This document shows, in pieces, positions 9,270-30,121 of a stretch of 64,000 nucleotides of DNA; positions within the stretch are counted from its first letter, which is position 1, and each line of letters starts with the position of its first letter. Position numbers and translations under genes: made by a program. The stretch is from contig JAVJQW010000049.1 in the NCBI GenBank assembly GCA_040218735.1, positions 77,821 to 141,820 of the forward strand, given 5' to 3'. This stretch comes from Deltaproteobacteria bacterium. Its GTDB lineage: Bacteria; Myxococcota; Kuafuiibacteriia; Kuafuiibacteriales; Kuafuiibacteriaceae. Under the pieces are notes generated by a model. It was not told the DNA's origin and made no database searches. It was given only the letters and a program-made list of their open reading frames with translations.

Positions 9270-10547
9270 TCACGCGGGCGGGTTGAGCGCGTCGATCGAA
9301 CGCTCGGTGCGGTCGAGGTCGCCGCCGAAGGTGCGCATCAGCGCGCGGTGCACGTCCTGACGCTGGTCGGTGCAGATGAAGCCGCGCTCCGCCGTACGGC
9401 CGCGCGACAGGTAACGGCTGACCGCCGCGTACGTCGTGCGGATGGCCGTGGCCTCCGCCTGGTTGCCCTGGGCCTCCTGAGCCGACGCGCGGCGCTCGAC
9501 GTCGCGCGGGCCGTTGATGCTGCGGCGACCGCCGTCGTAGAGGAGCTCCATCGCGTAGGCGACCTTCGACGCAAACGCCGCTTCGCTGCGGAAGTTGGCG
9601 GACGTGTCGATGTCGTTGATGCGCTGCATCCGGGTGCCGGTCAGGAGCGCGTCGGCGTTCGAGCTGTCGGAGCGCGCCGAAGCGATCTCGTCACGCGTCA
9701 GGTAGCCCTTGTCGCCGGCGCGGCGCTCGTAGATGCCGTTGAGGTCCTTCTCGAGCTTCGCGAGGTTCGCCGCCGTCGGGACGAACGCGAGGACGCCGTT
9801 CGACGTGGACTGGTTGCGGTGCGCGCCGTAGCGGGCGGCCTGCAGGAGCACCTGGACGATCGAGTCGGAGATGCCGTTCGCGGACATCGTGCGCTCGAGC
9901 GAGCCGGGCTGGCCGCCCTCGGACGCGAAGGTCACGACCTCACGCATCTGACGCGTCCAGCGGGTCTCGCTGTTCGAGGCGGGCTCGAGCGTGGTCGCCT
10001 TCGCGAGGAGCGCGACGATCGCCTTGTTGGCCGAGCGGATGTCGTCCAGCGTCTTGGCGCCGGCCGGAATCGACGGGGCCACCGGAGCGGTCGGCGCGGT
10101 CGGGGCGGCGGGGGCGCTCGGCGCGGTCTGGCCGGCGTTGCTGCTGGGGCGGCTCGGCTTGCTCGAGGAGCCCGGGGCGCCGTCGGTCGCGTGGAAGCGG
10201 CCCATCTGCTGCAGGAAGTAGTCGCGCGACTTCGTGGACGTGAAGTCGACCGCGCGCTCCTTCTTGCCCGTGACCTCCATGGACACGTTCTGGCGCATGT
10301 CGTCCGCCTTCACGTAGAGCGGGCGGAGCGCGGCGGCCTCGGCCTTCGACCAGCGGCGGGCGCCGGGCGTGACGGCGCGGTCACGGAGCTGCGGGGCGCG
10401 GACGAGCTCGTCCGTGTCCTTCTCGCTCCAGCCGCCGCGGAGGTTGTTGTACGTGAGTGTCGCGACGCTCTTGTCCGCGCGAGCGCTCTCGAACTGGGGG
10501 TTCGCGGCGCCGATTTGAGTCTTGACGGTGGTCGTGCTGAAAGCCAT
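9270..10547 (-). CDS. Hypothetical cytoplasmic protein (425 aa) with a Pro/Ala-rich linker; no recognisable domain
   Basis: MAFSTTTVKTQIGAANPQFE with a GAGGAGA Shine-Dalgarno 7 nt upstream. Diverse composition (K, N, Q, S, T, Y). Internal APSAPAAPTAPTAPVAPSIPAG linker. The overlapping + strand ORF 9348..10595 is Arg/Ala-rich antisense junk. Divergent from the 10846 gene. Confidence 0.7.
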   Translation of the reverse strand: MAFSTTTVKTQIGAANPQFESARADKSVATLTYNNLRGGWSEKDTDELVRAPQLRDRAVTPGARRWSKAEAAALRPLYVKADDMRQNVSMEVTGKKERAVDFTSTKSRDYFLQQMGRFHATDGAPGSSSKPSRPSSNAGQTAPSAPAAPTAPTAPVAPSIPAGAKTLDDIRSANKAIVALLAKATTLEPASNSETRWTRQMREVVTFASEGGQPGSLERTMSANGISDSIVQVLLQAARYGAHRNQSTSNGVLAFVPTAANLAKLEKDLNGIYERRAGDKGYLTRDEIASARSDSSNADALLTGTRMQRINDIDTSANFRSEAAFASKVAYAMELLYDGGRRSINGPRDVERRASAQEAQGNQAEATAIRTTYAAVSRYLSRGRTAERGFICTDQRQDVHRALMRTFGGDLDRTERSIDALNPPA

Positions 10548-14319: not shown

Positions 14320-15402
14320 GTGACCGAGCCGATCAACCTGCTGGAGCTGGAAGCGCTCGCGAAGAAGAAGCTCGCGCAGAACGCGTTCGACTACTACGTC
14401 AGCGGCGCGCACGACGAGATCACCCTGCGCAACAACCGCGCGGCGTTCGATCGAATCGAGCTGATGTACCGCGTGCTCGTCGACGTCTCGACGCGTTCAT
14501 TGGCGACGACCGCGTTGGGCCTGCCGATCGCGTTCCCGGTGATTGTCGCGCCGACGGCGTTCCACCGGATGGCGTGCGCCGACGGTGAGCTCGCGACCGC
14601 GCGCGCCGCGTCGAACGCGGGCACGGTCATGATCCTCAGCTCGCTGTCGAACACCCGCGTCGAGGAGGTCTGCGCCGAAGCCGATGGCCCGGTGTTCTTC
14701 CAGCAGTACATCTACAGGGACCGCGGCGCGACGAAGGCGCTGATGGAGCGCGCGGAGGCGGCGGGGGCGAAGGCGTTCGTCATCACCGTCGACGCCCCGA
14801 AGCTCGGCACCCGCGAGCGCGACGTGCGCAATCGCTTCCACCTCCCCGAGGGGCTCTCCGTCGAGAACATGGTCGCGGAGGGCTACGGCGAGGTCGCGGC
14901 CCCGCCGAACGACTCGGGGCTGTCGGCGTACTTCGCGTCGCTGATCGATCCGTCGTTTTCGTGGAAGGACCTCGACTGGCTGCGCTCGGTGACGTCGCTG
15001 CCGATCGTCCTCAAGGGGATCGTCCGCGAGGACGACGCAAAGCGCGCCGCCGAAGCGGGTGTGCAGGGCATCGTCGTCTCGAACCACGGCGGCCGACAGC
15101 TCGACACCTCCATCGCGACCATCGACGCGCTCCCCGGCGTGGTCGACGCCGTCGAGGGACGCGTGGAGGTCTTCATGGACGGTGGCGTCCGCCGCGGTAC
15201 GGACGTCCTCAAGGCGCTCGCCTTCGGCGCGCGCGCGGTGTTGATCGGGCGACCGATCCTCTGGGGCCTCGGCTACGCCGGTGAGGCGGGCGCGTCGCGC
15301 GCGCTCGAGATGCTGAAGGAGGAGCTCGACCTCGCGATGATGCTCGCCGGCGCGCCGACGGTCGCCGACGTCACCCGCGATCTCATCCGCGTTTCTTCGT
15401 GA
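14320..15402 (+). CDS. lldD: FMN-dependent alpha-hydroxy-acid dehydrogenase (L-lactate dehydrogenase/glycolate oxidase family)
   Basis: GTG start 14320. AFDYYVSGAHDEITLRNNRAAFDRIEL, the family's N-terminal signature. SNHGGRQLD is the active-site motif. The length matches the family. Confidence 0.85.
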   Translation: MTEPINLLELEALAKKKLAQNAFDYYVSGAHDEITLRNNRAAFDRIELMYRVLVDVSTRSLATTALGLPIAFPVIVAPTAFHRMACADGELATARAASNAGTVMILSSLSNTRVEEVCAEADGPVFFQQYIYRDRGATKALMERAEAAGAKAFVITVDAPKLGTRERDVRNRFHLPEGLSVENMVAEGYGEVAAPPNDSGLSAYFASLIDPSFSWKDLDWLRSVTSLPIVLKGIVREDDAKRAAEAGVQGIVVSNHGGRQLDTSIATIDALPGVVDAVEGRVEVFMDGGVRRGTDVLKALAFGARAVLIGRPILWGLGYAGEAGASRALEMLKEELDLAMMLAGAPTVADVTRDLIRVSS

Positions 15403-18186: not shown

Positions 18187-19845
18187 CTACCCACCGATCT
18201 TGCTGTTGAGCGCGTCGGCCAGGCTCGGGTCGGCCGGCTCGTCCTTGGACTTCTCCACCCGTGACGTCGCGCGCGCGCGCGCCTCGTGTTTCGTGCCGAG
18301 CACCGCGCTGGGCACCCCCGTCGCATCCATCTGCGTCGCCGCGTCGAGGATGTTGAACCGCGCCCGCGAGGGGAGCGGTCGGGTGTGCGCGGGGGGCGGC
18401 GGCTCGGAGCCGTCGAGCGCGCCGAAGGTGGTCGCCTCGTCCGGGTCACGCGTCGCCGCGGCGAGCGCTGCGGCGTCCACGGGGGACATCGCGATCGTCT
18501 GCGCGCCGCCCTCCGCGATGTCGTCTTCGTCCTCGTCGACTTCATCGTCCTCTTCGAGGTCGTGGATCGAGGACACCGCGATCGTCTGCGCGCCCGTATC
18601 ACGCGTCACCGCCGACATCGCGATCGTCTGCGCGCCGATGTCCGACGGCTCGTCGGGCAACATCCCCGGCGGCACGGACGACATCGCGATCGTCTGGGCC
18701 TGCGGATCCATGCCGTAGTCGTCTTCGTCGTCCTCGTCCTCGTCGTCGCTCGACAGGCCGGGGAGCGGGTTGATCGCGAGCGTCTGTCCGCCCGCGGCCT
18801 GGATGGCGTCGATCGCGCTGTAGCTGCGGGTCGGCGCAGAGGCGTCGCGGATGAGGTCGAGCGACTCGTAGGCCATCGTCTGCGCGCCGAGGTCACCGTC
18901 GCTGTCGGTGGTGGCGTCGTCGATCGCGAGCGCGTTGGGCTCGCCGGACGGGTTCGTCGGCTGCAGTGGATAACCTTGGAGGTTCACCGGCGGTCGCGAC
19001 GGCGCATCGGTCGACGCGTCGTCGAAGTGTCCGCCGGGTCGCGGCGGTTCGGCGATCGAGTCGAAGCCTTCTTCGTCGTCGATCTCCAGTGGGGCGTCGA
19101 GCGCGTCGAGGCTGCCGAGCGACAGCTCGATCGCACCCGAGGCGTCGATCTGTTGGGGCGTGAGCAGCTGCTGCTCCTGCGGCGGTTGCGCCAGCTCGCT
19201 CGGCACCGGCACCGGTCCGCCCGGCGTGGGCGCGCCGAGGTCGACGGGGACGACCGGCGGGAGGTGCACGTCGATCTTCGCGATCGGCGCGCTGCCGTTC
19301 GCCATCACGGCGTCGCCCGGCATCTCGTTTTCGCTCTCTTCGGCGGGCGGTGAATGTGTGCGCGCCATGGAGACGGCGCGGCCGAGGCTCCGCGGCGCAA
19401 CCTGTCTTTCGAGCTGGACGGCGTCGGCCTCTTGTCCGAGCTCGCGGTAGATCGCGGCCGCCGTCGTGCGCGCGAGATCGGCGTCGCGTTTGCGGTCGAT
19501 CGTCTCGTACACCTCGATGAGCTCGAGGTAGGGCGACGGGTCGCGACGGTTTACCTTCGCGAGCTGCTGCAGGACGGCGATGCGTTTGAGGTGTTTGCCT
19601 TCGTCGGCGAAGCGCTTGGCGGCCTTGCGATAGGCGAGGGCGGCTTGCTCCGGGAAGCCGCGGCGCAGGCTCTCCTCGGCGAGGCGGATCATCTTGCGTT
19701 CGTCGCTCTCGGCGACGGTGCTGATGCGCGCGACGAGTGTCTGCGGCGCCGGCACGTTGAAGGCGGGGGCCTGCGGCGACACGGGATCCGGTTCGGCCTT
19801 CTTGCCGAACAGGCGCGCGAAGAATCGCTTGAAGAACCCGGCCAA
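18187..19845 (-). CDS. Acidic, low-complexity repeat protein (552 aa) with five 'GAQTIAMS' motifs; basic amphipathic N-terminus
   Basis: MAGFFKRFFARLFGKK N-terminus and a helical ~130-aa N-domain. A long disordered acidic region follows (DDEDEDDEDD, EEDDEVDEDEDD). It contains LGAQTMAYESLD, AQTIAMSSVPPG, GAQTIAMSAVTRD, GAQTIAVSSIHD and GAQTIAMSPVD. Confidence 0.7.
   Translation of the reverse strand: MAGFFKRFFARLFGKKAEPDPVSPQAPAFNVPAPQTLVARISTVAESDERKMIRLAEESLRRGFPEQAALAYRKAAKRFADEGKHLKRIAVLQQLAKVNRRDPSPYLELIEVYETIDRKRDADLARTTAAAIYRELGQEADAVQLERQVAPRSLGRAVSMARTHSPPAEESENEMPGDAVMANGSAPIAKIDVHLPPVVPVDLGAPTPGGPVPVPSELAQPPQEQQLLTPQQIDASGAIELSLGSLDALDAPLEIDDEEGFDSIAEPPRPGGHFDDASTDAPSRPPVNLQGYPLQPTNPSGEPNALAIDDATTDSDGDLGAQTMAYESLDLIRDASAPTRSYSAIDAIQAAGGQTLAINPLPGLSSDDEDEDDEDDYGMDPQAQTIAMSSVPPGMLPDEPSDIGAQTIAMSAVTRDTGAQTIAVSSIHDLEEDDEVDEDEDDIAEGGAQTIAMSPVDAAALAAATRDPDEATTFGALDGSEPPPPAHTRPLPSRARFNILDAATQMDATGVPSAVLGTKHEARARATSRVEKSKDEPADPSLADALNSKIGG
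18487..18890. repeat. Dispersed 21-bp direct repeat CATCGCGATCGTCTGCGCGCC (five copies), encoding the GAQTIAMS peptide repeats
   Basis: Copies at 18487-18507, 18575-18595 (CACCGCGATCGTCTGCGCGCC), 18616-18636, 18682-18702 (variant ..GTCTGGGCC) and 18873-18890 (partial). Confidence 0.7.
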
Positions 19846-19940: not shown

Positions 19941-21695
19941 ATGGACCGGCGGCGCCTGGGTGAGAGCCTCTACACCGCGGGCACCCTCGCGCTCCCCTTG
20001 GGGATCGGCGCGGCGGGGGGGTACTGGATCGCGGACGCCGGTGCGCGGTGGGTCCCGACGACGCTCGGCGCGCTCCTCGTCGTCGGTGTCCTCGGGTTGG
20101 CGTTGCTCGCGGCCGGGAGCTCCCTGACCGCCACACAGCGCTCGCCGAAGACCAAGCGGTTCGTCTTCTTCACGCTCCTCGCGTTCCTGGCGGCGGTGCT
20201 GCGACTCGGCGTCTGGTGGGCGTCGACCCCGACGCCCCTCGCGACGCGCGACCACGCCGACTTCCTGCGGGTCTTCCGGGACGACGTGAAGCAGGTCGCG
20301 GCGCTCGCGCACACGCTCGACGACGCCGGCGGGACGATCGCTGCGAGTGTCCCCGTGGAGGGGGTGCTGTCGGCGGACGCGGAGAAGGTCGTCGCCGACG
20401 CTTGGGCGGGCTACGTGCACGCGTCGTTCGCGCTCGACCAGGTGCGGCGCTACTACGAGGACTACTACAAGCTCGACCTGTCGAGGTTGGAGCGGACGCG
20501 GCACACGCTCTCGTTCCTGCTGACGTTCGCGGCGGAGCTCGCGCTGTTCGAGCGGACGTTGTTGTTGGAGTCGGCGGTGTCGAAGAACGCGAGCGTCGAG
20601 AAGTTCCTCGACCTCCCGCGTCCGCAACACGACTTGCCGGGCGACAGCTACTCGACGGCGAAGGAGGAGCTGCTCGGCGTGAGCGACTACTCGCGCATCG
20701 TCGCGGGCAAGAAGTACATGGCGTACCTCGCGACGCTACACGAGGTAGATCGCGAGGTGCGCGCGGCGGGGTTCGACGCGCTGTGGACGGACGTCACGGC
20801 CCGGCTCGAACGCCTCGCGGAGCACCCGAAGGTCGCGGTGGCCTTCGACTCGGTGACGAGTGACTTCGCGCCGATTCAGCGGAAGGTGAAACACTTCGCG
20901 TTCCCCGTGCAGAAGGAGGTCGCGGAGTGGATGGGCGACACGCGGGTGCGCCGGGCCGGGCACTACCTCGTGGACGACGCGCTGCAAGCCAAGTTGCAGA
21001 CGAAGCTCCGCCCGGGCGACGTGATGCTCGCGCGGAAGAACTGGTACCTGTCGAACATCGGCCTCCCGGGCTTTTGGCCGCACGCCATGGTGTACGCGGG
21101 GACGCGCGCGCAGATCGCCGAGGCGTTCGACGAGGACCCGGAGGTGAGGGCGTACGTCGCTTCGTTGGGGCACGCCGGGACCTTCTCGAGCTTCCTGGAG
21201 ACGCGTTTCGTCCGGGTGTGGCGCTTGCTCGACGACCAGCCGATCGTCGAGGCGGTCTCGGAGGGCGTCGTGGTCAGCGACATGCACCACGCGGCCGGGG
21301 ACTACGTCGCGGCGCTGCGCCCGCGGCTGCGCCCGGTCGACAAGGCGAAGGCGATCGTTAGGGCGCTGTCGCTACTCGGGCGCCCGTACGACTTCGACTT
21401 CGACTTCGCGACCGACCACGCCGTGGTCTGCACGGAGCTGGTCTGGCGAAGCTACCGCGCCCACGACGGCGAGCCGGGACTGGAGCTTCCGCTGTCGCGG
21501 ATCGCGGGGCGCTTGACGCTGCCGGCGAACGAGATCGCGCGGGTGTTCCGGGACGAGGGGGACGGGGCCGCGCGGCAGTTCGACTTCGTGGCGTTCGTGG
21601 AGGGGCGGGAGCACCAGCAGGACGCGGTGGAGGCCGATGCGGAGGCGCTGGCGGCGACGGTGGATCGGTCGAAGTGGGACTTCGGGCAGCCTTAG
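19941..21695 (+). CDS. Membrane-anchored YiiX/DUF830-like permuted papain-fold (NlpC/P60-related) protein
   Basis: Two or three N-terminal TM helices. C-terminal LRPGDVMLARKNWYLSNIGLPGFWPHAMVYAG ... HAVVCTELVWRSY has His before Cys, as in permuted papain-like hydrolases. Confidence 0.6.
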   Translation: MDRRRLGESLYTAGTLALPLGIGAAGGYWIADAGARWVPTTLGALLVVGVLGLALLAAGSSLTATQRSPKTKRFVFFTLLAFLAAVLRLGVWWASTPTPLATRDHADFLRVFRDDVKQVAALAHTLDDAGGTIAASVPVEGVLSADAEKVVADAWAGYVHASFALDQVRRYYEDYYKLDLSRLERTRHTLSFLLTFAAELALFERTLLLESAVSKNASVEKFLDLPRPQHDLPGDSYSTAKEELLGVSDYSRIVAGKKYMAYLATLHEVDREVRAAGFDALWTDVTARLERLAEHPKVAVAFDSVTSDFAPIQRKVKHFAFPVQKEVAEWMGDTRVRRAGHYLVDDALQAKLQTKLRPGDVMLARKNWYLSNIGLPGFWPHAMVYAGTRAQIAEAFDEDPEVRAYVASLGHAGTFSSFLETRFVRVWRLLDDQPIVEAVSEGVVVSDMHHAAGDYVAALRPRLRPVDKAKAIVRALSLLGRPYDFDFDFATDHAVVCTELVWRSYRAHDGEPGLELPLSRIAGRLTLPANEIARVFRDEGDGAARQFDFVAFVEGREHQQDAVEADAEALAATVDRSKWDFGQP

Positions 21696-21700
21696 GGTTG

Positions 21701-21777
21701 CCTAAGCGCGAACGGAAGGATGGTGCGCCGGCGAGCATCGGGCGCCTTAGCGCGGACCGAAGAACGGTGCGCCGGCG
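21701..21777. repeat. Two copies of a 33-bp direct repeat (period 44 bp) with adjacent palindrome CTTAGG-GTTG-CCTAAG
   Basis: CCTAAGCGCGAACGGAAGGATGGTGCGCCGGCG at 21701-21733 versus CCTTAGCGCGGACCGAAGAACGGTGCGCCGGCG at 21745-21777. Confidence 0.6.
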
Positions 21778-21808
21778 GTGGCGGGTGCTCGTTCGAATTG
21801 AATTCGAT

Positions 21809-22250
21809 CGCGGGCTGGTGAGCGGGAGAGGCTTGGGGTGAGGCCGTGCGCCGAAACGGTGGGGCGTGCCGCGTTGGGGGGCGAGGTGCGCCGACTCGCG
21901 TGTACGCCTTGCCGGTCGCGGTTGGGGTGTTGGGGTCCGGGCGAGCGTTGGCGCGCGTGCTTTGCGGGGCAGAGCTCGCTCGAAAGTGTCGCATGTAGTT
22001 GGCGCTTCTTGGGGCGCATTCCGTTCGATCCGAATCTGAACGCGGGCTGGTGAGTGGGTAGGGCTTGGGATGAGGCCGTGCGCCGGTGGGGCGCGCCGCG
22101 TTGTGGGGGCGAGGTGCGCCGACTCGCGTGTGCGCCTCGCCGATCGCGGTTGGTGCGTGGGGGGCCGGGCGAGCGTTGGCGCGCGTGCTTTGCGGGGCAG
22201 AGCTCGCTCGAAAGTGTCGCAGGTAGTTGGCGCTTCTGGGGGCGCGTTCG
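21809..22250. repeat. Tandem duplication of a ~232-bp unit (two copies, ~88-90% identical) directly upstream of the RAYT gene
   Basis: Unit 1 starts at 21809 (CGCGGGCTGGTGAGCGGGAGAGGCTTGGGGTGAGGCCGTGCGCCG...). Unit 2 starts at 22041 (CGCGGGCTGGTGAGTGGGTAGGGCTTGGGATGAGGCCGTGCGCCG...). Both contain GGCGAGGTGCGCCGACTCGCGTG and GGGCGAGCGTTGGCGCGCGTGCTTTGCGGGGCAGAGCTCGCTCGAAAGTGTCGCA. An AT-rich palindrome TCGAATTGAATTCGA (21793-21807) precedes unit 1, and the imperfect CGTTCGATCCGAATCTGAACG precedes unit 2. Confidence 0.8.
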
Positions 22251-22617
22251 CTGAATAGCCGGCCCCTGGACTCGATGCGCTGGCGAGGTGGCCTCGCGGT
22301 TGTGTGCGCTCGCGGCGACTTTCGGTTCTTGGCGGCCCCGATGGCTGCTTTTGTGTCTGGCCATCGTTCGCTCCAACGACGCGGTCGGCGCTCGTTGCGC
22401 TGAGCGTGAGAGCGCGTTTCTGGCGCGAGAGCCTTCCGTCGCTTTCACCCGAGGTCGCCCCCGCTCGGTGTCGAGCTCGAGTCGGTTCTCATTCGATCGG
22501 ACTTCCCGCCAAGTCTTTGCCGAGGGGGGCAACGTCCATCGGGTCCGTCCTCCTACTGTCGAGTTCGAAAAGTCGTGGGTTGTTCCCTTGAAGATAAGAT
22601 GTTAGCCTTATTCAAGA

Positions 22618-23301
22618 GTGCAGGGCGTACTGAGATTCCCGTTCGGGCACGGTGGTGCTCGGAAGAACGCGGGTCGGAAGAAGGGCCGAGGTCGACGGAA
22701 CGTCGAGCATCGTCGGCGCGAGTCGATCCCCAAGGGAGCGCCCGTTCACGTGACGCTCCGGGTCTCTCGGGCCGTGGGGAACCTGCGGAGCAAGCGGCGC
22801 TTTCAGCCGATCAAGCAGGCGCTGCGGGACGGTAGCGAGCGCTTCGCGTGCCGCCTCGTGCACTTTTCCGTGCAGAAGAATCACCTGCACCTGCTGGTGG
22901 AACCTCGGGACCGGCGCTCACTGATGCGCGCGATGAAGGGGATGCAGGTTCGCCTGGCGCGTCGTCTCAACACCGCGCTGAAGCGGCGGGGGCAGGTGTT
23001 CTCGGACCGGTACCACACACACGTGCTTCGGTCGCCGCGGGAGGCGCGGCACGCGATCGCCTACGTCCTGCTGAACGCCCGCAAACACGCGGCGCGGGGT
23101 GGCCATACGTTGCCTAGGCGCTGGATCGATCCCTACTCGTCGGCGCGCTGGTTCGACGGATTCGAGAATGGAGGGTGGGTCACGACGGATGAGGTTCGCA
23201 TCGGTGGGCCGCCTGGCGTTTGGCTCCTGCGAAAGGGGTGGCGCGACGCCGGGCCGATCTTCGTGGAGGAGGTCCCCGGCCGTCGGTTGCGCGGTCGGTG
23301 A
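22618..23301 (+). mobile_element. REP-associated tyrosine transposase (RAYT; IS200/IS605-like HUH Y1 transposase TnpA_REP)
   Basis: 227 aa. The HUH motif sits in LVHFSVQKNHLHLLVEP (HxH), and the catalytic Tyr region is YHTHVLRSPREARHAIAYVLLNARKH. The stop TGA at 23299-23301 lies inside the first downstream repeat copy. It is flanked by repeats on both sides. Confidence 0.75.
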
Positions 23302-23422
23302 GCGCTACCTCGCCACCGCGCACGTCCACGTGAACGCGGCCACCGGGTTTCCGGGAGGCGTCTGCGCGTTCGGTGAGCGCTACCTCGCCACCGCGCACGT
23401 CGACGTGAACGCGGCCACCGGG
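23296..23422. repeat. Two 52-bp direct repeats (period 75 bp, one mismatch) with a REP-like imperfect palindromic core, immediately 3' of the RAYT
   Basis: CGGTGAGCGCTACCTCGCCACCGCGCACGTC[C/G]ACGTGAACGCGGCCACCGGG at 23296-23347 and 23371-23422. Core CCGCG-CACGT-cc-ACGTG-aa-CGCGG. Copy 1 spans the RAYT stop. Copy 2 spans the stop and last ~13 codons of the minus-strand lipoprotein gene. Confidence 0.8.
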
Positions 23423-24426
23423 CCCTCCAGGCAGTAGCCGATCGGATCCGGACACGGCCACCACGTGGGCGCCGACGTCGCCGTGGTTGCGAAGGCACGC
23501 GCCGTCTCGTCGACGTAGCAGCCGCAGCCGTCGCAGCGGACGCGCTGGGAGTGGAACGTCAGCATCTCGAGCTGCGCGTTGCGGCGGCACGTGATCCCCC
23601 CGAGGGGCTCTTCGTCCTCGTCGACGACGACGGGCGGAGGGAGGCTCATCAGGGGGGCGCCCGCGCACTCCGTCGCGGTGGTCCCGCAGACGACCAGCGG
23701 ATCCAGGGGCGGGTTCACCGTCACCGAGACGTCGATCGGCGACGCCTGTGTTCCGAAGATTTGATGGCGGCACCGCACACTCGCGGAAGGGACGTCCGAG
23801 TCGCTCACAACGATCGATGCCTCGCGCGCCGCCGCGATCGCGAGGTCGTCCAACGTGCCGACGACGCCGACGAACGCGGTGAAGCGCCCGTTGGTCGCGG
23901 TCTCGTACAGCGCGAACTGCTCCGACGACATCTGGGAGAGGATCGACTCGATGTCGAAGACGTAGGCGACGAACGCGTTGAAGGACGAGTCTGCGCCGAT
24001 CACTCGGTCCGGGCCGCCGTCCTCGAGGCTGCGGGCGTCGAAGCTGCCGCTGTCGTCGAGGTCCTCGTAGACCACGAAGCGCGGGCGGTAGGCGTTACCG
24101 CGCGTCGGGAAGTTACCGTTGAAGCCGAAGCCGATCGCCTCCTTCGGGGACAGCAGATCGATCTGGTCGGCGGGCGGCGCGACGACGTCGAGCGTGATCG
24201 TGGTGCTCGTGACGACCTGGTCGAGCGTCACGACGTACCCCGTCGACGGCTCCCCGGCGTCGCTCACCTCGCTCGTGACCCACACGACCGCGAGCCGCAC
24301 CGGGTGCGTGACGACGAGGTTCGGCGCCGGCTCCAACACGAGCTTCACCCGCCCCGGGAGCGGCGCGCGTGTCGCCTCCGGACGACACGCCGCGAGCAAC
24401 GCGAGCAGCAGGACGGCGCGCTTCAC
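23380..24426 (-). CDS. Lipoprotein, function unknown (Cys-rich C-terminal region)
   Basis: MKRAVLLLALLAAC lipoprotein signal. Its start overlaps the upstream gene's stop by 4 bp. Its 3' end is embedded in the REP-like repeat. Confidence 0.65.
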   Translation of the reverse strand: MKRAVLLLALLAACRPEATRAPLPGRVKLVLEPAPNLVVTHPVRLAVVWVTSEVSDAGEPSTGYVVTLDQVVTSTTITLDVVAPPADQIDLLSPKEAIGFGFNGNFPTRGNAYRPRFVVYEDLDDSGSFDARSLEDGGPDRVIGADSSFNAFVAYVFDIESILSQMSSEQFALYETATNGRFTAFVGVVGTLDDLAIAAAREASIVVSDSDVPSASVRCRHQIFGTQASPIDVSVTVNPPLDPLVVCGTTATECAGAPLMSLPPPVVVDEDEEPLGGITCRRNAQLEMLTFHSQRVRCDGCGCYVDETARAFATTATSAPTWWPCPDPIGYCLEGPVAAFTSTCAVAR

Positions 24427-29089: not shown

Positions 29090-30121
29090 ATGAGGCGATG
29101 GTGGATGGGCGCGGCCCTGCTGTTGGTCGCGTGCGCCGGCACCGAGCCGGACGTGACGCCCGGGCGCGACGCGGGGACGGTCCGCGACGGAGGCACTGAC
29201 GGCGGAGTGAATCGCGACGCCGGACCGGCGCGCGACGCCGGGCCCGCGCGGGACGGCGGCCCGCGGCGCGACGCGGGCCCGTCGACGTGTCCGCCCGCCG
29301 AGGACTACGTCGGCGACGGCGCGTGGACCGGAGCGTTGGTGGTGCCGTCCGGGCTGACGTTGTGCAGGTTCGCCGCGCAGCACGAGCCCATCGAGGACGT
29401 CTACGCGCGCCGCGGGGAGGCGACGCTCCCGGCCGGGACGTTCCCGCTCCCGACGGAAGCGACGGACGAAGCGATCTTCCTGCCGATGTGTCTACCGTCG
29501 GGGCCGGACCTTTCGGCCGGCACCGTGTCCGCCGAGCGTGGGACGCGACTGGACGACGCGACGGAGCGGTACCACGTCACGGTGACGCAGCCGGCGGCCG
29601 ACGGCACGTCGGTGCAACTAACGACGTCGCTGCCGACCGACGATCCGACGATGACGATCGACGGGCCGGTTTCGACGTACGGCGCGCTGGCGCTCACGCA
29701 CTGCCGCGAAAAGAACTGCTTCCAGGATCAGGACCTGTATCTGCCGTGCGCGCTCACGCCGAACATGTGTGATCGGCTGACCTTCACGGACGGTGACATC
29801 GCGATCGATCAGTTCCACTGGGCCGGTTCGGTCGGCGCGGGGTTCGCGGCGGCGATGCGCGCGCAAGGCACCTTCCGCGGCACGGGCTTCGACGTCTCCG
29901 CGTACCCGCAGCTCACGATGGCCTACGGCCACCACGCCTTCACGCGATCGCTGTGGCTCACGTTCGACGCGCCGATCGATGGCGTGTGCGCGCTGCGATT
30001 CGCGGAGGTCGGTGAGTACGGTCAGCTCGACCCGGTGGAGCTGCTCGACTGCGACGGGAACTCACGCGGTACCTCCGCGATCACGGCGGACAGTCATGAG
30101 TTTCGGATGAGTTGTAACTGA
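29090..30121 (+). CDS. Lipoprotein, function unknown
   Basis: MRRWWMGAALLLVACAGTEP is a lipoprotein signal, followed by a RDAGP-repeat linker (DAGPARDAGPARDGGPRRDAGP) and then a Cys-containing globular part. Confidence 0.65.
   Translation: MRRWWMGAALLLVACAGTEPDVTPGRDAGTVRDGGTDGGVNRDAGPARDAGPARDGGPRRDAGPSTCPPAEDYVGDGAWTGALVVPSGLTLCRFAAQHEPIEDVYARRGEATLPAGTFPLPTEATDEAIFLPMCLPSGPDLSAGTVSAERGTRLDDATERYHVTVTQPAADGTSVQLTTSLPTDDPTMTIDGPVSTYGALALTHCREKNCFQDQDLYLPCALTPNMCDRLTFTDGDIAIDQFHWAGSVGAGFAAAMRAQGTFRGTGFDVSAYPQLTMAYGHHAFTRSLWLTFDAPIDGVCALRFAEVGEYGQLDPVELLDCDGNSRGTSAITADSHEFRMSCN

Follow-up and report, generated by a model that had tools for sequence, protein, structure and literature searches.

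Domesticated Y1 transposases, comprising the REP-associated tyrosine transposases (RAYTs, named for repetitive extragenic palindromic (REP) sequences) and their relatives, are widespread, and to our knowledge their cellular role is not known outside the REP-associated groups. In the REPtrons of RAYT/TnpA_REP proteins (E. coli YafM, Protein Data Bank (PDB) entry 4ER8; Pseudomonas RAYTs with REPINs), the gene is chromosomal, vertically inherited, under purifying selection and unlike an insertion sequence (IS) in its behavior, and is flanked on both sides by cognate short palindromic REPs; a Pseudomonas or Stenotrophomonas genome carries several diverged paralogues, and the flanking non-coding DNA is particular to each (PMC6006769, PMC5581495). 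TnpA_Y1 proteins have been divided by motif into class 1 (Y---Q), class 2, which includes the known RAYTs (Y---NP), and class 3 (Y----Q) (PMC6006769, Table 1). Here, a gene of this superfamily was analyzed in a 64,000-nucleotide (nt) stretch of contig JAVJQW010000049.1 (assembly GCA_040218735.1), hereafter the window, from an 11.5-Mb genome of 69% GC that carries the NCBI label 'Deltaproteobacteria'. With moderate confidence, the locus is read as an old, vertically inherited paralogous cassette of a divergent Y1 HUH gene (IS200/RAYT superfamily), accompanied by an upstream module and by local arrays at its junctions. As in REPtrons, the fold is that of Y1 HUH enzymes and the diverged copies are chromosomal, selected and inherited vertically, each with non-coding DNA of its own; the flanking repeats, in contrast, are unrelated direct tandem repeats, and inverted matches of 14-17 nt between the flanks are at the level of chance.

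For comparison, source-species DNA was taken from JGI 3300058926 contig Ga0573880_001 and from the metagenome-assembled genome (MAG) GCA_040222965.1, whose 21.3-kb stretches are 100% identical to window positions 14423-35727, and the sister species was represented by MAG GCA_040223155.1, with coding DNA ~94% identical to the source species. Four paralogous Y1 loci of the source genome were read, and five of the sister MAG. Searches for the repeats and the module covered the 64-kb window and 126 kb of the source genome, and 243 kb for the module profile; dS and dN/dS were obtained with a Nei-Gojobori script. Four syntenic pairs were found across the two species (window/L023, L019/L001, L016/L009 and L020/L011), and the fifth sister-species locus, L002, had no source-genome counterpart among the loci read. 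Orthologues gave dS of 0.13-0.22 with dN/dS of 0.05-0.17, and paralogues gave dS of 0.45-0.75 with dN/dS of 0.09-0.17 and DNA 83-87% identical; the paralogues most like the window gene (88-92% amino acid (aa) identity) sit in different gene neighborhoods. The syntenic positions and these rates together point to old, vertically inherited, selected duplicates and not to copies of an active IS. The source genome contains at least four such old cassettes, and probably five or more.

Homology among the paralogues begins at the module and ends at the stop codon. For this reason the cassettes may descend from an IS200-like element of ~1.5 kb, of which the module would be the left part, with early dispersal and later domestication. 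The catalytic fold and motifs are those of IS200/IS605 TnpA (IS608, ISDra2), and a strand-specific, gene-linked upstream module that was dispersed together with the gene recalls an IS200/IS605 left end. An IS of this family that is active now or was so recently, with the module as left end and the paralogues as transposed copies, would account for multiple copies per genome in unrelated neighborhoods, for the constant company and single orientation of the module and for paralogue homology that stops at the stop codon. It is nevertheless quite improbable. The copies are too diverged in DNA and in dS, IS200 copies being ~99% identical (Quentin et al., PMC6006769); the source genome has a Y1 gene at the syntenic position of four of the five sister-species loci; and purifying selection is strong on all copies. 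Moreover, these old, fixed cassettes contain neither tnpB nor any other open reading frame (ORF) with a Pfam match, neither conserved subterminal hairpins nor left-end or right-end hairpins could be demonstrated, no right end was apparent, the gap between module and gene reaches 0.5 kb, and the protein is ~80 aa longer than IS200/IS605 TnpA and falls below the IS200 equivalog cut-off. At one sister-species locus (L009, 1392-1400) TAA was found as the second codon (ATG TAA GGC...), yet the rest of the gene is under purifying selection (dN/dS 0.15 when compared with L016); the codon is likely to reflect an error of sequencing or the use of another start.

The ORF and repeats that had been described at this locus in an earlier note, made by a model from the letters of the window, were all recovered at the same positions and far above chance. 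The features are as follows.

19941-21695, forward strand: Peptidase_C92 gene, the upstream neighbor, 584 aa; outside the cassette, with a stop region (GCCTTAG) that is echoed in the two 34-nt repeats.
21700-21733 and 21744-21777, forward strand: two 34-nt direct repeats, partial duplications of the left junction, in a region 93.6% identical in the sister species.
21775-22022, forward strand: copy a of the upstream module, ~240 nt, G/T-rich on this strand, 93% identical to the sister-species copy.
22016-22253, forward strand: copy b of the module, a tandem duplicate 88-90% identical to copy a.
22254-22579, forward strand: poorly conserved spacer, 82% identical between the species.
22580-22617, forward strand: proximal promoter-like motif, kept in the paralogues and in a 69%-identical homologue.
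22618-23301, forward strand: Y1 HUH gene, 227 aa, GTG start, identified by Pfam, alignment and fold match.
23271-23420, forward strand: 75-nt tandem block in two copies (23271-23345 and 23346-23420), present in three copies in the sister species.
23288-23322, repeated at 23363-23397, strand unspecified: terminator-like hairpin (dG -19.2 kcal/mol, z -1.9).
23380-24426, reverse strand: convergent lipoprotein-like gene, 348 aa, with its C-terminus inside repeat copy 2.

The product of ORF 22618-23301 matched the Pfam profile Y1_Tnp (PF01797) at 32.6 bits against a cut-off of 23 (E 1e-7). The HUH motif was located at H89/H91 (NHLHLL.E) and the catalytic tyrosine at Y149 in YVLLNARKH. A homologue search returned 1012 relatives, mostly 220-260 aa long and 44-55% identical. 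In an alignment of 28 homologues reaching down to 44% identity, the HUH histidine pair, Y149 and N153 were invariant, and R131/H133 (DRYH), V150, DPYSS and W202-L204/G207-W208 were invariant or nearly so. The protein has a basic, Gly/Arg-rich N-terminus and a conserved C-terminal DPYSS...WLL..GW. Since several residues of the basic N-terminal 40 aa (GG.R..AGR), which lie upstream of the 183-aa public gene call, are invariant as well, the long reading frame is real and the public call is too short. An AlphaFold (AF2) model built on the 28-homologue alignment (mean predicted confidence, pLDDT, 85.5) matched best, among PDB entries, 4ER8, the complex of E. coli TnpA_REP with a REP hairpin (152 columns, E 8e-6); ISDra2, IS608 and Sulfolobus TnpA came next, the matches 4ER8, 2XM3, 2F4F and 2VJV spanning E 8e-6 to 1e-4. 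In a sequence-profile search of the PDB, ISDra2 was found at E 5e-4 and 4ER8 at E 0.37; a single-protein phmmer search against the PDB gave repeat-protein noise only and was discarded. The Pfam profile, the invariant HUH and tyrosine residues and the fold all bear out the assignment of the ORF to the Y1 HUH transposase family that the earlier note had made from its motifs. At the level of sequence, judged by these scores, the protein is a distant member of the superfamily.

The further placement of the gene in the RAYT class held in part. It agrees with RAYTs in its vertical inheritance and non-IS behavior; the RAYT cut-off was not reached and the Y---NP signature is missing. Against the NCBIfam RAYT equivalog NF047646 (REP_Tyr_transpos) the protein scored 45.1 bits, below the cut-off of 80, and against the IS200 equivalog NF033573 (transpos_IS200) 21.1 bits, below the cut-off of 55. 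In the 28 homologues the residue after N153 was A, H, G, S or Y and never P, where RAYTs have Y---NP and the window protein YVLLNA, and no Q was present at Y+4, as the Y---Q motif would need. By motif, a Y1 family with Y---N[AHGSY] fits, on this alignment, none of the classes of Quentin et al. The protein is also longer than RAYTs, at 227 aa, with its basic N-terminal extension and W-rich C-terminal part.

Among described groups, the family most resembles subclass 2.1 (group 1 of Bertels et al., or 'TIRYT'), the comparison having been made by published description. The two agree in length (median 238 aa there, 227 here; PMC6006769, PMC3733652), in the 'SS' motif that follows the catalytic helix (DPYSS in the window protein), in the lack of nearby REPs, in a genomic complement of about two or more diverged copies and in taxon, the subclass being prevalent in delta-proteobacteria. 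The other motifs differ, being NHLH, DRYH and YVLLNA here and NHVH/NH[YF]H, W[EQ]/FQ and YIELNP/Y[IV]HLNP there. TIRtrons also differ in their long terminal inverted repeats, often with GGGGWSAS, of which none was consistent among seven loci here; the GGGGWSAS-like string GGGGTGAG was found in unit a of the window only. Candidate terminal inverted repeats of 16-17 nt (window 22277-22292/23304-23319 and L019 8832-8848/10711-10727) were rejected as chance, ~2 being expected per 2-kb GC-rich region.

Upstream of the gene, Tandem Repeats Finder (TRF) reported a tandem array at 21809-22249 (period 228, 1.9 copies, 90% matches), and units a and b matched by BLAST at 88% over 233 nt (E 2e-81). The AT-rich palindrome TCGAATTGAATTCGA precedes them at 21793-21807. 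The two 34-nt repeats are 85% identical and each ends in the left-edge motif of the module, GGTGCGCCGGCG, so that they echo both the stop of the upstream gene and the module edge. Conserved boxes of the module are GGCTGGTGAGCGGGAGAGG, GGCCGTGCGCCGAAACG, TGCGCCGACTCGCGTG and GCAGAGCTCGCTCGAAAG, together with TGCGCCGAC.CGCGTG in alignment A2. With a module profile, nhmmer gave matches upstream of Y1 genes only, always on the gene strand, at 10 of 10 cassette loci in the two species, with no convincing match away from Y1 genes in the 243 kb; each cassette has one to four full or partial direct copies. The suggestion in the earlier note that the ~232-bp unit might be a different RAYT-associated element was therefore essentially right, the module being present upstream of every paralogue. 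At the orthologous locus of the sister species the module is single. As the divergence between copies a and b of the window (10-12%) exceeds that of either from the orthologue, their duplication is old, and the 2 x 232-bp repeat is, on these identities, an old tandem duplication of the module; the sister-species module looks like a hybrid of a and b in its sequence.

Between the species the module is 88-93% identical (positions 21806-21903 are identical throughout) and the spacer that follows it 79-88%. Pooled over three orthologous pairs, mismatches numbered 63/744 in the module (~8.5%) against 185/1068 in the spacer (17%), and among paralogues the modules are ~70-75% identical while the spacers cannot be aligned. 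By these comparisons the module is under purifying selection, as is the Y1 gene. Among cassettes, 27 to 495 nt separate the module from its gene; L002 and L011 lack the spacer along with the last (3′) third of the module but retain the 5′ two-thirds. The module is lineage-specific: the 69%-identical homologue (L024) has merely a 75-nt upstream intergenic region, and no match was found in the Planctomycete homologues. Upstream of one of these (L012, 2305-2526; Planctomycetaceae, 45% identical), a 111-bp tandem duplication (2.0 copies, 89%) unrelated to the module lies ~0.5 kb from the gene. Several candidate signals were set aside, namely a sigma-54-type promoter in box TGGCGCGCGTGCTTTGC, which by inspection has the wrong spacing (GG-N12-GC); an 'iteron' GTGCGCCGR, found six times in 400 nt here (seven expected in the whole window) and less repeated at the other paralogues; and a module pattern of 25 specified bases, whose two matches in a metagenome-contig collection, in which the window's own units were not found, were both chance and in coding DNA.

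The module region is strongly strand-asymmetric (GC skew ~+0.3, AT skew -0.3 to -0.5). Coding potential was not indicated in module or spacer, where the copies differ by frame-breaking indels (lengths not divisible by three) and none of five ORFs matched Pfam. A G/U-rich non-coding RNA (ncRNA), independent or in the leader, that acts with or regulates the Y1 gene would fit the constraint and the asymmetry, as well as the predicted helices, which are rich in G-U pairs and workable on the forward strand only. The covariation score and the percentage of cells paired exceeded those of all 500 shuffles, a result that kinship among the sequences can give without structure. Against such an RNA, the folding energy was no better than that of shuffles (minimum free energy z -1.0 on the forward and -0.4 on the reverse strand), the RNAalifold covariation term was positive (+1.17), and pairs with changes on both sides numbered 6 against 3.8 in shuffles (41/500 reached 6) for a structure derived from the same sequences. 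Rfam gave no match to the module at the gathering threshold or at E up to 1 (in the whole window, Rfam and tRNA scans matched only a distant tRNA-Glu), no promoter- or terminator-like signal was found at the module borders, and the promoter-like motif of the Y1 gene is proximal. A structured ncRNA, which the earlier note had raised, was hence not borne out by folding energy or Rfam, and an RNA role for the module is unlikely, though it keeps some weight.

In the 70 nt before the start codon, nine sequences were aligned (window, L001, L002, L009, L016, L019, L020, L023 and L024), and TTGNNN (22580-22585) was followed after exactly 17 nt by TGT-TAGCCT (22600-22608), the consensus with its -10-like element being TTGNNN-17 nt-TGTTAGCCT (TAAGCC in L024). 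The motif ends 9 nt before the start codon, which varies between GTG, TTG and ATG, and no Shine-Dalgarno sequence is present. The AT-rich stretch TTGNNN-17 nt-TGTTAGCCTTATTCAAG lies directly against this variable start codon, and a similar ATCAAGATG context was seen in the Planctomycete homologues L012 and L013. A generic promoter-consensus scan detected nothing. We infer from the alignment that the motif may be an extended -10 promoter yielding a leaderless or near-leaderless mRNA; as it is proximal, the module probably lies outside the core promoter and the mRNA. In the sister species, a deletion of ~380 bp (L011 8470-8772 against L020 9272-10030) has taken the 3′ third of the module, the spacer, the promoter motif and ~10 codons. 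The remaining L011 gene has a dN/dS of 0.05 despite this, so its expression must originate elsewhere. The spacer itself, lost in L002 and L011, bears a terminator-like hairpin at 22331-22349 in the window. A further spacer hairpin (window 22338-22367, L023 5716-5745) consists of CGATGGC, a 14-nt loop and GCCATCG, followed by a T-rich tail; its stems are the same in both species and four loop bases differ (p ~0.06, not significant alone). That the module is a double-stranded regulatory site has a small share of our confidence, and the range of its distances to the gene would be unusual for a fixed promoter architecture.

Downstream of the gene, the two copies of a 51-nt core (23297-23347 and 23372-23422) are identical but for one base, with 0 matches expected in shuffles. 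The full period of the array is 75 nt, and each block joins 17 nt from the Y1 coding sequence and the terminal 14 nt of Y1 (stop included), through 3 nt, to the terminal 41 nt of the lipoprotein gene (stop included), the two stops being 3 nt apart. The 58-nt cores (14 + 3 + 41 nt) thus occupy 23288-23345 and 23363-23420. Copy 1 holds the Y1 stop (23299-23301) and copy 2 the lipoprotein stop with the last 13 codons, just as the earlier note had stated. Between the cores, a 17-nt 'spacer' can be aligned at 11/17 positions with the Y1 codons before core 1, the 99th percentile of random 17-mers, and this match identifies the event as a tandem duplication of the 75-nt block across the junction of the convergent genes. 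The junction hairpin (14 bp, one bulge, 6-nt loop) has the last Y1 codons as its 5′ arm and the last lipoprotein codons as its 3′ arm, and from its sequence it looks like a bidirectional terminator between the abutting genes. The array, at two copies in the window, has three in the sister species at a 99% match. Independent contigs assembled from short reads of the source species end exactly inside the 75-nt array (window 23372 and 23393; L006 and L007) or inside the 232-nt unit (21937; L005). The repeats break assemblies, and copy numbers taken from MAGs are therefore unreliable.

The proposal that the downstream repeat had remodeled the C-terminus of the lipoprotein was not sustained. The string 'YCLEGPVAAFTSTCAVAR' is kept in orthologues that are 63-65% identical, one of which (L021) has no Y1 neighbor, so the C-terminus is ancestral; at the one orthologue locus examined, L021, the palindrome is absent from the DNA. 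In that distant relative (GCA_030426505.1, L021 1284-3514) the interval between the lipoprotein and Peptidase_C92 genes is occupied not by a Y1 cassette but by a pair of unrelated genes, one for a 332-aa protein and one for a 345-aa esterase, and it thus provides no clean 'empty site' from which the cassette ends could be defined.

The downstream units had been taken for REPs, and in a classical RAYT/REP system the 52-bp units, and perhaps the 232-bp units too, would be cognate REPs or bacterial interspersed mosaic elements (BIMEs) dispersed over the genome. The locus has points in common with such a system: the top fold match is E. coli TnpA_REP, the NCBIfam RAYT model outscores the IS200 model, the gene is inherited vertically as RAYTs are, and the flanks are so rich in repeats that short-read contigs break within them. 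The downstream repeats are, however, a locus-specific minisatellite that arose by duplication of a gene junction. Two local genes, one of them with an ancestral C-terminus, supply the 58-nt core from their coding 3′ ends; the repeats downstream of each paralogue are unrelated or absent, and no relative was found beside any paralogue or in the 126 kb of source genome. No further copy of the repeats of the Y1 locus was found by BLAST in the 64-kb window; a candidate match to the 52-bp unit at 14575-14624 (75% identity along 57 nt) falls in a coding region and was attributed to chance. An exact 30-mer of that unit gave 0 matches in a collection of genome contigs, from which the genus is apparently absent, the protein having been found there at two distant Planctomycetaceae loci only. 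With BIME-type REP clusters and minisatellites (variable number tandem repeats), the arrays share short hairpin-bearing units in tandem in intergenic DNA beside a Y1 gene and a copy number that varies between close relatives. BIMEs differ in that REP orientation alternates and families are genome-wide, the units here being direct, locus-specific and made of the coding 3′ ends of neighbors, not inverted REP pairs on both sides. The motif 'GGTGAGCG', which both repeat families had been said to share, is indeed present at the locus, but it is missing from the 3′ ends of the other paralogues and is a local coincidence. With a protein below the RAYT equivalog cut-off and lacking Y---NP, a classical RAYT/REP system is very improbable.

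Tandem arrays of period ≥20 detected by TRF cluster at the flanks of Y1 genes and are built from the sequence of each locus. In the source genome, about 5 of the 7 such arrays are found 1.3 kb or less from a Y1 gene, and this zone accounts for ~8% of the 126 kb (binomial p ~1e-4, less extreme when intergenic DNA alone is counted). At L019/L001 the upstream array has a 297-nt period that joins ~130 nt from the 3′ end of a Lar_N gene to 100 nt from the left side of the module; the downstream arrays (5 units at L001, 4 at L019, each of ~60 nt) echo the stop region of a convergent CCP_MauG gene. The downstream array at L016 includes the Y1 stop region; it was seen with 4-5 units in the JGI contig (L016 10690-10960), with 2 in a same-species NCBI MAG that is 127 bp shorter (L017 10677-10826) and with ~1 in the sister species (L009 2080-2180), and the difference is either a real copy-number polymorphism or a collapse in short-read assembly. 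Arrays away from Y1 genes were also found in the window, at 10083-10158 (36 nt x 2.1) and 29213-29281 (18 nt x 3.9).

These arrays could be neutral by-products, unconnected with the Y1 protein, of ordinary replication slippage in intergenic DNA that is long, unconstrained and rich in hairpins, the module then being a double-stranded DNA (dsDNA) regulatory region bound by protein. All of the arrays are made of local sequence, that of the window has a strong hairpin, other tandem arrays lie away from Y1 genes, and copy number shifts between close relatives, as in minisatellites generally. Yet arrays are ~5- to 30-fold concentrated at Y1 flanks, at four of five paralogue groups and on both sides, and they repeatedly straddle the junctions between cassette and host; for the dsDNA part, the variable distance to the gene noted above also counts against it. 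Slippage together with a regulatory module is a real but minor possibility.

On the reading of the locus as an old domesticated cassette, the module would be a strand-specific, cis-acting nucleic-acid partner of the Y1 protein, the counterpart of an IS200/IS605 end or of a cognate REP. This role is the one preferred for the module, though tentatively. The junction duplications may arise by repeated nicking or strand transfer by the enzyme, or by hairpin-driven slippage. A stronger form, in which this is an unclassified domesticated Y1 family with the module as a single-stranded DNA site or a G/U-rich RNA partner and an enzyme that creates minisatellites of neighboring 3′ ends by nicking or strand transfer at the two junctions of its own cassette, is improbable. 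In its working the system is most like the REP-less low-copy TnpA_Y1 subclasses of Quentin et al. and Bertels et al., to which it adds the module and the junction arrays. No published description of either the module or the junction arrays was found in the literature searched. By the features compared here, the system is not a REPtron, an active IS200/IS605 element or a TIRtron.

Several observations weigh against the cassette reading. Replication slippage at hairpins can make tandem duplications without an enzyme. Arrays do not accompany every cassette: L020/L011 has an upstream array of 39-nt period (L020 9183-9273) and none downstream, and at L002 both sides are free of arrays. Neither a conserved right end nor conserved terminal inverted repeats could be found, inverted matches between the flanks being at chance level across seven loci. 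A conserved hairpin, the hallmark of Y1 substrates, is not clearly supported in the module by the alignments, and since the module is missing in L024 and the Planctomycete homologues, the wider protein family can do without it. No dispersed copies were found in 126 kb of the 11.5-Mb genome, a result with which families of fewer than ~100-250 copies, and hence a moderate-copy dispersed family, are compatible.

Immediately upstream of the Peptidase_C92 gene, on the reverse strand of the window (18187-19845), lies a 552-aa acidic ORF with reiterated 'GAQTIAMS/GAQTIAVS' and runs of Asp/Glu. It is syntenic in all relatives, and its public gene calls carry no Pfam domain.

For annotation, the practical lesson is that palindromic repeats beside a Y1 gene should be checked for origin and copy number before they are called REPs. 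For the family, the loci describe Y1 genes with four to five or more old, selected paralogues per genome, no visible REPs, a constrained module and unstable junction minisatellites. If the module is the substrate, it would provide a defined protein-DNA (or protein-RNA) pair for a REP-less subclass and a possible link of HUH nicking to local tandem duplication. If the transposase acts at its own junctions, it would be a local generator of tandem duplications and of variation in 3′ ends and terminators.

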